UHGV virus genome: UHGV-1583584
Length of the DNA: 11,684 nucleotides
DNA from: a virus
Reading direction: 5' to 3' (one strand)
The notes under the pieces were generated by a model. The model worked only from the letters and a program-made list of their open reading frames with translations, was not told where the DNA came from and did no database searches. Below, piece by piece: positions 2,597-6,175 of the stretch. The first letter of the stretch is position 1. Every line of letters starts with the position of its first letter. The translations under genes were made by a program, and so were the position numbers.

Positions 2597-3352
2597 TTAA
2601 ACTGCTAGTTGCAATTGCATTTCAAAGCGGTCGCGTTGTTCACAATACGCAAGAGAACCAGGGCTATTGTGTGCCTCAATCCGTTCTACCATTAATGCTG
2701 CGCGTGTCTCTTTACTTGCAGGTGCATAAGCCCCAGACCAGGCTTTATCAATACCGATGTTTCGAGCGACGTTCGTACTATCTGCGCTGGCTAAGGGTAA
2801 TTTTGTGAATATCAGCGGATTTAACATGCGCAATCCATGTAGTTTCGTAACCAGCTGACCATGCCCATCAACAATGTGACGAATCAGGTCTTTCATTCTG
2901 GCTACCGCAAGAGTTGGGCGCTTTACGTCATAGTCGCCACAACTACCGATAGCCACTCGCGGAAACTCATTGCACAAATGAATAAATCGCTCGTCACTTT
3001 CATTCATGTGCCACACTGGAACGCCAGCTAGTTTTCCGTGAGGCCACTCATTCAGAAGCGCATCATTTTCCTCCTCTCCGCCATCAATAACATCCGGGAT
3101 AATGGCAAAATCGAATCTTGGGTGATTCTTCCAGCGAGCAACAAACTCGTAGTAATCGCTCCAGTCGATTTTGTTTTTGCCAGCTGCTTTCCAGGCGGTG
3201 AATGCACCGTTGTCCAGCGCGAACGACTGACAGTATTCAGCCGCGAGATTGATCTGGCCTGAATGCGCAAAACTGATAAACGCATGTCGCCCTTTCCATG
3301 CTCTCATTGCGCACGTATCAGGAGTAATAGGCCCACCGTGGTAGTGAATCAT
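2597..3352 (-). CDS. Putative TGT-fold (tRNA-guanine transglycosylase-like) protein, candidate DNA 7-deazaguanine transglycosylase (DpdA-like). Function is tentative.
   Basis: The six-frame ORF is 2597..3394, but the strong SD AAGGAG sits 7 nt upstream of the Met at 3352 (MIHYHGGPITPDT...), one nucleotide after the Ea22-like stop. A co-linear motif pattern resembles TGT family landmarks as I recall them from E. coli Tgt: ALDNGAF vs LTDSGGF, IIPDV vs MIFDE, VAIGSCG vs AVGGLAVG, KLHGLR vs YLMGVG, ADSTNVARN vs FDCVMPTRNARN. There is no CxCxxC...H zinc subdomain. Similarity is motif-level and not verified by search. Confidence 0.6.
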   Translation of the reverse strand: MIHYHGGPITPDTCAMRAWKGRHAFISFAHSGQINLAAEYCQSFALDNGAFTAWKAAGKNKIDWSDYYEFVARWKNHPRFDFAIIPDVIDGGEEENDALLNEWPHGKLAGVPVWHMNESDERFIHLCNEFPRVAIGSCGDYDVKRPTLAVARMKDLIRHIVDGHGQLVTKLHGLRMLNPLIFTKLPLASADSTNVARNIGIDKAWSGAYAPASKETRAALMVERIEAHNSPGSLAYCEQRDRFEMQLQLAV

Positions 3353-3353
3353 C

Positions 3354-3761
3354 TCACTCTCCTTTGATGCGAATGCCAGTAGCGCGGATTGCATCGATGA
3401 CTTCAGAAACTTTGTATGCCATTACCGTTTGGTAATCATCGTGAAAATCTGTTCGATGAAGCATGCTGCTACGTTCCGGGAGCAGTATTTCCCGCGCTTC
3501 CAGTTCTGCAATGCGCTTTTTTGCTGCTTCCAGTTCATCCAGTAATTCCAGCACGGTAGCCGGATTAGCCTTGGCAACAAAATCCCGGACTGGCTTACAA
3601 TCAATCTCCGCAATGGGTTGATACGATGTGTAGCCATGCTGTCTTGTATAACTACCGTGACGAATAACGAAAAAATCACCATTTATTTTTTTAGCCTGCC
3701 ACTTATCTTCACCGGCTTTCTCTGCCGCTTCACGCAGTGCCTGAGAGTTAATTTCGCTCAC
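3354..3761 (-). CDS. ea22: Ea22-like protein (mosaic: lambda-like N- and C-termini, different central region)
   Basis: The N-terminus MSEINSQALREAAE and C-terminus GIRIKGE match lambda Ea22 as recalled. The central part differs and the protein is shorter (135 aa vs 182 aa in lambda). Confidence 0.8.
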   Translation of the reverse strand: MSEINSQALREAAEKAGEDKWQAKKINGDFFVIRHGSYTRQHGYTSYQPIAEIDCKPVRDFVAKANPATVLELLDELEAAKKRIAELEAREILLPERSSMLHRTDFHDDYQTVMAYKVSEVIDAIRATGIRIKGE

Positions 3762-3979
3762 GTCGAACCTCTCTGTTTACTGATAAGCTCCAGATCTTGC
3801 TGGCAACTGGCACAAGTCCGACAACCCTGAACGGCCAGTCGTCTTCGTTCATCTATCGGATCGCCACACTCACAACAATGAGTGGCAGATATAGCCTGGT
3901 GGTTCAGGCGGCGCATTTTTATTGCTGTGTTGCGCTGTAATTCTTCAATTTCTGATGCTGAATCAATTATGTCTGCCAT
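3758..3979 (-). CDS. TraR/DksA-family C4 zinc-finger protein (lambda orf73-like)
   Basis: The 73-aa product has CCECGDPIDERRR...CRTCASCQ, a four-cysteine TraR/DksA-type zinc finger. The surrounding DNA matches lambda in this region as recalled. Its stop overlaps the Ea22-like start in an ATGA arrangement. Confidence 0.8.
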   Translation of the reverse strand: MADIIDSASEIEELQRNTAIKMRRLNHQAISATHCCECGDPIDERRRLAVQGCRTCASCQQDLELISKQRGST

Positions 3980-4030
3980 CTTTCATTAATCCCTGAATTG
4001 TTGGTTAATACGCTTGAGGGTGAATGCGAA

Positions 4031-4055
4031 TAATAAAAAAGGAGCCTGTAGCTCC
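4031..4055 (-). terminator. Rho-independent terminator-like hairpin (minus-strand orientation)
   Basis: GGAGC (4041-4045), loop CTGTA, GCTCC (4051-4055), preceded on the + strand by AAAAAA. On the minus strand the stem is followed by TTTTTTATTATT. It lies just downstream of the minus-strand gene ending at 4078. Confidence 0.45.
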
Positions 4056-4077
4056 CTGATGATTTTGCTTTTCATGT

Positions 4078-4293
4078 TCACCGTTCCTTAAAGACGCCGT
4101 TCAACATGCCGATCGCCAGGCTTAAATGAGTCGGTGTGAATCCCATCAGCGTTACCGTTTCGCGGTGCTTCTTTAGTACGCTACGGCAAATGTCATCGAC
4201 GTTTTTATCCGGAAACTGCTGTCTGGCTTTTTTGATTTCAGAATTAGCCTGACGGGCAATGCTGCGAAGGGCGTTTTCTTGCTGAGGTGTCAT
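4078..4293 (-). CDS. Small lambda-type early-region protein (orf61/orf63-cluster homolog), start assigned to the Met of MTPQQENALRSIARQ
   Basis: The six-frame ORF runs 4078..4359, but the ATG at 4293 overlaps the stop of the upstream small ORF (ATGA). The region is conserved with lambda as recalled. Confidence 0.65.
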   Translation of the reverse strand: MTPQQENALRSIARQANSEIKKARQQFPDKNVDDICRSVLKKHRETVTLMGFTPTHLSLAIGMLNGVFKER

Positions 4294-4373
4294 TGAACAA
4301 GCCCCATGTCGGCAAGCATAAGCACACAGAATATGAAGCCCGCTGCCAGAAAAATGCATTCAGTGGTTGTCAT
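4290..4373 (-). CDS. Candidate 27-aa hydrophobic micropeptide (MTTTECIFLAAGFIFCVLMLADMGLVQ)
   Basis: Short ORF whose ATG overlaps the stop of the upstream gene (ATGA at 4370-4373) and whose stop overlaps the ATG of the downstream gene (ATGA at 4290-4293). The product is a single hydrophobic helix-like segment. It is below the size threshold of the ORF track. Confidence 0.3.
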   Translation of the reverse strand: MTTTECIFLAAGFIFCVLMLADMGLVQ

Positions 4374-4561
4374 ACCTGGTCTCTCTCATCTGCTTCTGCT
4401 TTCGCCACCATCATTTCCAGCTTTTGTGAAAGGGATGCGGCTAACGTATGAAATTCTTCGTCTGTTTCTACTGATATTGGCACAAACCTGACTCCAATTT
4501 GAGCGAGGCTATGTGCCATCTCGATACTCGTTCTTAACTCAACGGGAGATGCTTTGTGCAT
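4370..4561 (-). CDS. Small lambda early-region protein (orf63-like)
   Basis: 63-aa ORF in the conserved position between exo-proximal orf60a and orf61. Assignment is by position and by recalled lambda DNA similarity in this segment. Confidence 0.65.
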   Translation of the reverse strand: MHKASPVELRTSIEMAHSLAQIGVRFVPISVETDEEFHTLAASLSQKLEMMVAKAEADERDQV

Positions 4562-4722
4562 ACAGCTCCCCGTTTATTATTTATCTCCTCAGCCAGCCGC
4601 TGTGCTTTCAGGGGATTTCTGATAACAGAAAGGCCGGGAAATACCCAGCCTCGCTTTGTAATGGAGTAGACGAAAGTGATCGCGCCCACCCGGATATTAT
4701 CGTGAGGATGCGTCATCGCCAT
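4534..4722 (-). CDS. Small lambda early-region protein (orf60a-like), immediately downstream-adjacent to exo
   Basis: 62-aa ORF overlapping the exo stop region, in the same arrangement as lambda orf60a. Confidence 0.65.
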
Positions 4723-5393
4723 TGCTCCCCAAATACAAAACCAATTTCAGCCAGTGCCTCGTCCATTTTTTCGATGAACTCCGGCACCATCTCGTCAAAA
4801 CTCGCCATGTACTTTTCATCCCGCTCAACCACGACATAATGCAGGCCTTCACGCTTCATACGCGGGTCATAGTTGGCAAAGTACCAGGCATCTTTTCGCG
4901 TCACCCACATGCTGTACTGCACCTGGGCCATGTAAGCCGACTTTATGGCCTCGAAACCACCGAGCCGGAACTTCATGAAATCCCGGGAGGTAAACGGGCA
5001 TTTCAGCTCAAGGCCATTGCCGTCACTGCATAAACCATCGGGAGAGCAGGCGGTACGCATACTTTCGTCGCGATAGATGATCGGGGATTCAGTAACATTC
5101 ACGCCGGAAGTGAATTCAAACAGAGTTCTGGCGTCGTTCTCGTACTGTTTTCCCCATGCCAGCGCCTTAGCATTAACTTCCGGAGCCACACCGGTGCAAA
5201 CCTCAGCCAGCAGGGTGTGGAAGTAGGACATTTTCATGTCAGGCCACTTTTTTCCGGAGCGGGGTTTTGCTATCACATTGTGAACTTCTGAAGCGGTGAT
5301 GACGCCGAGCCGTAATTTGTGCCACGCATCATCCCCCTGTTCGACAGCTCTCACGTCGATTCCGGTACGCTGCAGGATAATGTCCGGTGTCAT
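4713..5393 (-). CDS. exo: Lambda exonuclease (Red alpha), 5-prime to 3-prime dsDNA exonuclease
   Basis: The 226-aa product [40 protein letters not shown]... is essentially identical to lambda Exo as recalled. Confidence 0.97.
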
Positions 5394-6175
5394 GCAGCCA
5401 CCTTCTGCTCAGTGGCTTTCTGTTTCAGGAATCCAAGAGCTTTCACTGCTTCGGCCTGTGTCAGTTCTGACGATGCGCGAATGTCGCGGCGAAATATCTG
5501 GGAACAGAGCGGCAATAAGTCGTCATCCCATGTTTTATCCAGGGCAATCAGCAGAGTGTTAATCTCCTGCATGGTTTCATCGTTAACCGGAGTGATGTCG
5601 CGTTCCGGCTGACGTTCTGCAGTGTATGCGGTATTTTCGACAATGCGCTCGGCTTCATCCTTGTCATAGATACCCGCAAATCCGAAGGCCAGACGGGCAC
5701 ACTGAATCATGGCTTTATGCCGTAACATCCGTTTGGGATGCGACTGCCACGGCCCCGTAATTTCTCTGCCTTCGCGGGTTTTGAATGGTTCGCGGCGGCA
5801 TTCATCCATCCACTCGGTAACGCAGATCGGATGATTACGGTCCTTGCGGTAAATCCGGCATGTACAGGATTCATTGTCCTGCTCAAAGTCCATGCCATCA
5901 AACTGCTGGTTTTCATTGATGATGCGGGACCAGCCATCAACGCCCACCACCGGAACGATGCCATTCTGCTTATCAGGAAAGGTGTAAATTTCTTTCGTCC
6001 ACGGATTAAGGCCGTACTGGTTGGCAACGATCAGTAATGCGATGAACTGCGCATCGCTGGCATCACCTTTAAATGCCGTCTGGCGAAGAGTGGTGATCAG
6101 TTCCTGTGGGTCGACAGAATCCATGCCGACACGTTCAGCCAGCTTCCCAGCCAGCGTTGCGAGTGCTGTACTCAT
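5390..6175 (-). CDS. bet: Bet (Red beta) single-strand annealing protein
   Basis: The 261-aa product [48 protein letters not shown]... matches lambda Bet as recalled. Its start overlaps the exo stop region. Confidence 0.97.

Follow-up and report, generated by a model that had tools for sequence, protein, structure and literature searches.

A probable 27-codon gene between orf63 and orf61 in the early-left operon of lambdoid phages

Do the 84 nt between orf63 and orf61 of lambdoid phages form a gene of their own? The question is raised by an 11,684-nucleotide stretch of virus genome UHGV-1583584 (the window, by which we mean that whole stretch), whose minus strand is the pL early-left operon, or 'exo-xis' block, of a lambdoid phage. 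A first-pass annotation had singled out a 27-codon open reading frame (ORF) lying between an orf63-like gene and an ORF whose product begins MTPQQ, and its coordinates (4290..4373, minus strand) and product, MTTTECIFLAAGFIFCVLMLADMGLVQ, are as given there. The same annotation held that this mini-ORF is tightly coupled to both neighbors, is translated and encodes a plausible single-pass membrane peptide. The geometry of the ORF, its conservation, purifying selection specific to its frame and a mosaic boundary at its ATG are all observed in the data described below, and we judge it probable, on sequence evidence, that the best explanation is a real, selected protein-coding gene of the pL operon.

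The overlaps at the two ends of the mini-ORF can be read directly from the window and agree with the initial description. Upstream, orf63 ends ...CAG GTA TGA, and in the ATGA at 4373-4370 its stop lies over the mini-ORF ATG; downstream, the mini-ORF ends ...CAA TGA, and in the ATGA at 4293-4290 its TGA lies over the ATG of orf61, the MTPQQ gene. A same-strand stop/start overlap of 1-4 nt is found at both ends and is kept where the upstream gene has been swapped. When the spacer was shuffled with its composition preserved, ~1% of shuffles yielded an open ORF with ATGA at both ends, a share that fell to ~0.3% when spacer length was also left free.

A check of frame conservation and synonymous sites across lambdoid phages had been proposed with the original observation, and we carried it out on 357 loci gathered from IMG/VR, metagenomes, GenBank phages and Escherichia coli genomes, the later sets being anchored on a pattern internal to orf61 and hence unbiased as to the mini-ORF. 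Of 325 loci, 322 keep the mini-ORF intact. Indels occur in the other three, whose surrounding 751 nt contain 3, 13 and 49 single-base gaps in all, which points to assembly error or decay, and three loci lack the last codon only. The peptide is unchanged in 276 of the 322 loci, and the substitutions seen (F8L, A10V, G12V, A21S/V, D22N/G and V26A) are mostly conservative. Because some IMG/VR contigs had been fetched twice, we counted distinct site/allele changes rather than loci. There are 31 such changes across the 322 loci; in the mini-ORF frame 15 are synonymous and 16 nonsynonymous, where 24% synonymous would be expected (P ~0.003; omega, the ratio of nonsynonymous to synonymous rates, ~0.34). 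The ratio of synonymous to nonsynonymous changes is 13:8 for changes present in at least two loci (P ~3e-4, omega ~0.2) and 8:4 for those in at least two distinct 272-nt haplotypes (P 0.002, omega ~0.16), and eight of the nine variants found in at least 11 loci are synonymous. The excess is confined to the mini-ORF's own frame: the other two sense frames across it have omega values of ~0.75-1.3, including frame B, in which a 93-residue Orf61, also named 'ZapA', is annotated. Accepted neighbors (orf61, orf60a, orf63 and orf73) give omega values of 0.26-0.6, and the synonymous enrichment in the mini-ORF frame is at least as strong as theirs.

The start of the mini-ORF is also a recurrent mosaic breakpoint. 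In 20 distinct segments, such as that of phage PhiR30_1, a Dam methylase stands in place of orf63; homology to the window there begins exactly at the A of the mini-ORF ATG, with which the stop of the methylase forms another ATGA overlap, and a GGGAGG Shine-Dalgarno sequence lies upstream. A diverged orf63 clade of Klebsiella/Citrobacter type lacks the mini-ORF, and other genes are ATGA-coupled to orf63 there: the end of orf63 is invariably GCATGA, and any of at least six genes may have its start in the overlap, most often a homologue of the 31-residue ORF that follows orf61 in the window. The same ATGA is therefore the swap point for several downstream genes, which makes it a cassette boundary, and to judge by these junctions the mini-ORF and orf61 behave as one inserted cassette.

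Expression of such a gene would run through its overlaps. Ribosomes ending orf63 at UGA would re-initiate on the overlapping AUG (AUGA), aided either by the purine-rich GAGAGAGA (4380..4387, minus strand), a weak Shine-Dalgarno-like element within the 3' end of orf63 with an anti-Shine-Dalgarno duplex of -5.6 kcal/mol, or by the GGGAGG that takes its place in the methylase class. The 27 codons would give a very hydrophobic peptide, probably a single helix inserted in the inner membrane, and a stop at UGA over the orf61 AUG or GUG would hand ribosomes over to orf61. The rival that survives best keeps only this last step: translation would merely pass ribosomes from orf63 to orf61, with the peptide a by-product. 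The ATGA at both ends suits such a relay, as do the weak Shine-Dalgarno sequence of orf61 itself (-4.7 kcal/mol at the start of its 71-residue form) and its GTG start (junction GTGA) in 39 of 322 loci; in SfI-like phages, moreover, orf61 works without the mini-ORF given a GAGG Shine-Dalgarno sequence of its own. For a relay, however, an open frame would suffice, yet the amino acids are conserved like those of the neighboring proteins (omega ~0.2-0.35, with the identity in 276 loci noted above). Selection on the peptide sequence implies more than a ribosome relay, and we regard a relay-only role as unlikely, if still the most credible of the alternatives.

A second alternative, improbable in our estimation, is that the spacer is non-coding and the ORF a chance one, its conservation reflecting a young, horizontally spread block or a signal at the nucleotide level, such as an RNA structure, a processing site or a recombination hotspot. 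The near-identity of all copies (at least 93%) would fit this, as would the use of the ATGA site as a recombination junction. Variation has a three-base periodicity in one frame only, however, and the small share of shuffles that match the geometry argues in the same direction. The region also folds less stably than shuffled controls (z=+1.74), Rfam has no match in the mini-ORF, and no promoter- or terminator-like site was found inside it.

The third alternative makes the region the 5' part of a longer orf61, either the 93-residue form or the 61-residue form of lambda, and the 27-codon frame an accident. How the region came to be annotated in this way is clearest in lambda (NC_001416), where the peptide is 100% identical (30925-31008, minus strand) and the mini-ORF DNA differs from that of the window at 2 positions, both synonymous in the mini-ORF frame. 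The mini-ORF is concealed there because the annotated 'orf61' (30839-31024) runs across it in another frame, and that annotation exists only because a stop has been lost to a T-to-G change and the MTPQQ protein truncated by an additional A. Lambda has a run of seven A residues (~30862-30868) where the window has six (4229-4234), which cuts the protein from 71 to 29 residues; among 176 distinct related segments, six A residues are found in 167 and seven in 3. The annotated 61-residue 'orf61' of lambda reads as a two-frame chimera, a pseudogene-like remnant, and a review terms lambda Orf61 'truncated' (PMC8614690). In 933W and Phi24B the annotation is of a 93-residue Orf61, read in the other frame from a start within the mini-ORF, that carries the RefSeq name 'cell division protein ZapA'. 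In 434, mEp332, ev099 and four RefSeq E. coli records, a 71-residue orf61 is annotated and a 76-nt gap is left.

A longer orf61 has points in its favor: no haplotype has a stop in frame B, the 93-residue form is the one adopted by PHROG 303 and many GenBank records, and the prophage of Escherichia sp. E1V33 has an ATGA-coupled start, preceded by a Shine-Dalgarno sequence, fused to frame B. In that prophage (locus L095, 371-1716) orf63 has given way to a gene for a 355-residue protein with a DGQHR motif, joined by an ATGA to the 93-residue Orf61, the only natural case found of the long form with a proper start context. Against it stands the 22-codon 'N-terminal extension' itself (4294..4359, minus strand), which, given the lack of synonymous excess in frame B, bears no coding signature and probably does not code in that frame. 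The ATG of the 93-residue form has the weakest anti-Shine-Dalgarno pairing of the series (-3.8 kcal/mol), and AlphaFold2 gives its residues 1-20 a predicted local distance difference test score of 41-56, as against 74-92 for the core, in agreement with a published report of inconsistent models for residues 1-23 of a protein otherwise modeled as three-helix and homeodomain-like (PMC8614690). Over-expressed Orf61 is reported to be insoluble (Dydecka et al. 2018). In SfI-like phages the breakpoint falls 18 nt into orf61, whose product, with the N-terminus MTIEHNNALR, begins at the same ATG as MTPQQ with GAGG before it, which supports the 71-residue start, and the RefSeq E. coli records that we opened use that form. 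The evidence favors a 71-residue Orf61 plus a separate 27-residue gene, and a longer orf61 seems to us slightly less credible even than a non-coding spacer. The RefSeq product name (for example, NC_000924 ST933Wp10) is probably unfounded as well, the Pfam ZapA match to Orf61 being sub-threshold (E = 0.014, 16 bits against a cut-off of 23.8) and NCBIfam giving none. We also considered a -1 frameshift at an ATTTTTC run that would yield a membrane-anchored Orf61, and rejected it: the run is broken by F8L in 13 loci, and nothing else supports it.

That the mini-ORF was unannotated, as first stated, holds for all the phage and RefSeq records that we opened. It is missing from the annotation of eight phage records (lambda, ev099, mEp332, 434, PhiR30_1, ev207, 1H12 and 933W), and no feature covers it in 60 of 60 sampled RefSeq E. 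coli rows or in the four records opened. The statement fails for a few GenBank E. coli annotations, which hold the exact peptide as a 'hypothetical protein', and for UniRef, which lists it as A0A0A2SGE8_ECOLX. In the Jouyvirus phages ev207 and 1H12 (loci L086 and L087), orf63 is annotated as just 37 residues and stands 50 nt away from orf60a, and the window differs in the 8 nt that directly precede the ATGA; the mini-ORF is intact there and encodes the most diverged peptide (A21S, D22G).

If the mini-ORF is translated, its product has the makings of a small membrane protein. The peptide has a grand average of hydropathicity (GRAVY) of 1.62 and a hydrophobic core at C6-V26, and its Kyte-Doolittle mean reaches 2.42 over the 21-residue window C6-V26 and 2.87 over a 15-residue core. 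The suggestion of a single-pass membrane peptide remains plausible in this light, as the hydropathy fits one bilayer-spanning segment. The only charged residues are E5 and D22. Searches with the peptide gave no Pfam match up to E = 10, and the best scores against PHROGs (E = 0.68) and NCBIfam (E = 0.034) were below cut-off; neither the searchable literature nor either of the two sets of supplements that were checked contains the peptide string. A small, very hydrophobic, prophage-borne peptide recalls type I toxins in the style of Hok, Ldr, Ibs or TisB, killers silenced by an antisense RNA. This is quite unlikely here: the ORF sits inside a polycistronic operon with ATGA coupling and lacks a dedicated promoter, an antisense promoter and a structured leader, and no promoter-like site was found on either strand within 4290-4450. 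The weakest rival, a selected gene on the opposite strand (a 61-residue ORF at 4306-4491, plus strand, with third codon positions in common with the mini-ORF), is scarcely credible, since its synonymous excess over the overlap is partial (9:17, P=0.11) and weaker than that of the sense frame, no promoter-like site lies upstream on the plus strand, and it is neutral over orf63 (omega 1.08) and hence not the source of the synonymous signal.

Published genetics of 'orf61' bears on what the peptide might do. The lambda frameshift mutant pGAWorf61_mut lacks the C in CTTCATATTCTGTGTG[C]TTATGCTTGCCGACAT, as we found by matching the primer (Table 1 of PMC4195576) to the sequence; the homologue of the deleted base is position 4322 (minus strand) of the window, the first base of mini-ORF codon 18 (CTT). 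This frameshift delayed phage development after induction with mitomycin C or H2O2 (Bloch et al. 2014, PMC4195576), and in lambda the mini-ORF is the only intact coding unit that it strikes. As the core of lambda Orf61 is already truncated, the mini-ORF, or its coupling, would be a strong candidate for the cause of the phenotype. Quantitative PCR with one primer within the mini-ORF found that after infection the region is transcribed about as strongly as N (PMC4195576). Dydecka et al. 2018 made their orf61 deletions by replacing the whole annotated ORF, and with it most or all of the mini-ORF; the published 'orf61' mutants thus all remove or shift it. The phenotypes attributed to 'orf61' comprise delayed induction, a changed lysis-lysogeny choice and impaired adsorption of Phi24B progeny. 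It is possible, but we advance it only tentatively, that the peptide functions in lambdoid and Shiga toxin (Stx) phages as an effector acting on the membrane and is at least in part the real agent of these pro-lytic phenotypes.

Several observations weigh against reading the mini-ORF as a gene. Divergence is shallow, all copies being at least 93% identical and effectively limited to Escherichia, with the result that conservation alone proves little and the selection test rests on ~30 changes. The Shine-Dalgarno sequence of the main class is weak. The peptide contains no Lys or Arg, and the absence of a positively charged inside flank is unusual for a membrane anchor. SfI-like phages (9 of 176 distinct segments) carry orf61 without the mini-ORF, which is dispensable in some lineages, and in Escherichia sp. 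E1V33 a 14-nt deletion joins the mini-ORF ATG in frame to orf61 and destroys the 27-residue frame. The third codon positions are shared with the antisense ORF, which nevertheless looks neutral over orf63. Ribosome profiling of lambda, as summarised in PMC8614690, added only 7-residue and 31-residue ORFs in this block; any footprints on the mini-ORF could, however, have been assigned to orf61, whose annotation spans it.

The mini-ORF is widespread within a narrow host range. A tblastn search places the peptide in 176 phage records, every one from a lambdoid or Stx phage of E. coli; identity is at least 99% in 138 of these. The 721 bases around the mini-ORF have matches of 90-100% identity in 181 phage records, led by ev099 and mEp332 (99.7%), with lambda at 97.2%. 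Of 5426 complete E. coli genomes, 3142 (~58%) contain the 73-nt interior of the mini-ORF, at 4246 places in all. In a scan of one genome per species, the Escherichia-labeled matches were only Escherichia sp. E1V33 and E. albertii, and outside Escherichia the only matches were lambda DNA contaminating unrelated assemblies. These (loci L096-L109) carry the seven-A allele, often on contigs of ~48.4 kb, under labels such as Shewanella, Bradyrhizobium, Pseudomonas, Kitasatospora and Paenibacillus, among others, and are laboratory lambda contaminating public genomes. 'Campylobacter phage CJLB-4' (MW057783, 48,361 bp), with a lambda-identical peptide, looks like a similar case. Homologues of orf61 are also essentially limited to E. 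coli. Deeper homologues sought through diverged orf61 were rejected: two (51-52% identity; loci L089 and L090) are indel-ridden sequences, and a third, from an E. coli prophage (L091), reflects an insertion sequence, an IS3-family element at 1250-2560 inside orf61, with the mini-ORF intact. In another E. coli prophage (L236, ~740-1439) the block is broken within or just after the mini-ORF, and an IS3-family transposase is annotated ~90 nt downstream.

The neighboring genes all lie on the minus strand. The genes bet (RecT; 5390-6175) and exo (YqaJ; 4713-5393) meet in a true ATGA, as do exo and the orf60a-like gene (DUF1317, Pfam E=2e-39; 4534..4722), whose start, placed as in the lambda annotation, overlaps the exo stop at 4713..4716. 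Next comes orf63 (DUF1382, Pfam E=2e-29; 4370..4561), which starts within orf60a in an overlap of 28 nt rather than 4. Beyond the mini-ORF lie orf61 in its 71-residue form (phrog_303; 4078..4293), the 31-residue ORF (3986..4081), orf73 (DksA/TraR zinc finger; 3758..3979) and an Ea22-like gene (3354-3761). The orf61 stop and the start of the 31-residue ORF overlap as GTGA. The orf73/Ea22-like junction at 3758-3761, which the first-pass annotation had cited as a parallel ATGA, is likewise a GTGA.

The 31-residue ORF encodes MNMKSKIIRELQAPFLLFAFTLKRINQQFRD and has an ATG 6 nt further in than its GTG. It matches in length and position the lambda 31-residue 'orf2313' found by ribosome profiling (Liu et al. 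2013, as summarised in PMC8614690). Its homologues, MKALITRSLKRPFLLLAFTFNRINRQFREH, are directly ATGA-coupled to orf63 in the Klebsiella/Citrobacter-type clade (loci L358-L437), and with clear homologues in this diverged clade it is more widely conserved than the 27-residue ORF. A terminator-like hairpin with a T-run lies inside it (4039..4057, minus strand), at the position of the predicted t2 terminator (Bloch et al. 2014, PMC4195576). Downstream of the Ea22-like gene is a 265-residue ORF without a Pfam match (2597-3394, minus strand), a homologue of which (250 residues, MIHFHGGPITPDTCA...; locus L214, 10102-10854) stands immediately upstream of orf61 in SfI-like phages; the family is a conserved lambdoid protein that changes position within the operon.

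A gene at this place would matter because no phage is better annotated than lambda and because the exo-xis block, a research subject of the Wegrzyn and Donaldson groups (PMC8614690), is studied for modulating the induction of Shiga toxin prophages. If the mini-ORF is real, the maps of lambda and Stx phages are wrong here, 'orf61' becomes a 71-residue protein plus a separate 27-residue one, and an unannotated gene of 84 nt, stop included, is present in most complete E. coli genomes (~58%). The published orf61 mutants (the codon-18 frameshift and the whole-ORF deletions) would then be double mutants, and their phenotypes would need to be re-assigned. Were the peptide also an effector, a new and widespread gene would join the lambda map and a new player would enter Shiga toxin prophage induction. 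The mini-ORF is, besides, a clean example of a gene between two stop/start overlaps and could be useful for studies of ribosome hand-over.

Small inner-membrane proteins such as KdpF, AcrZ, MgtS and PmrR have fewer than 50 residues and about one hydrophobic helix, are missed by gene callers and are expected to act by binding a larger membrane protein. The mini-ORF peptide resembles them in size, in hydrophobicity and in having been overlooked, and differs in lacking homology to them, in having no Lys or Arg, and in being phage-borne and expressed only from pL. Coupling by termination and re-initiation at overlapping stops and starts (ATGA or TGATG) is known in bacterial and phage operons, and the same 4-nt overlaps occur here at bet/exo, exo/orf60a, orf63/mini-ORF, mini-ORF/orf61, orf61/31-residue ORF and orf73/ea22; coupling in this operon is something we infer from geometry, and what is unusual is a complete 27-codon gene between two such junctions. 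The annotated Orf61 (61 residues in lambda; 93 in 933W and Phi24B; PHROG 303) uses the same DNA as the mini-ORF in a different frame. Closer to hand, 'orf2313' shares with it an unannotated status, the orf60a-orf73 block, the pL transcript, a 4-nt stop/start overlap and conservation in related phages, but has reported ribosome-profiling support, is basic and amphipathic (GRAVY -0.18) and is conserved more widely. Entero67K comprises conserved intergenic ORFs of 15-70 codons in Enterobacteriaceae, a sizeable minority of which overlap a neighbor by 1-4 nt (PMC11188072); the peptide was not found in the searched part of its supplementary tables. The mini-ORF is like these ORFs in occupying a RefSeq 'intergenic' gap, in its purifying selection, its hydrophobic product and its overlaps with neighbors, and goes beyond them in its gene-specific context, namely lambda itself and mutants that hit the mini-ORF. 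We take it, in sum, to be a further case of a known class of small hydrophobic proteins, one that annotation has missed both in lambda and across thousands of E. coli genomes.

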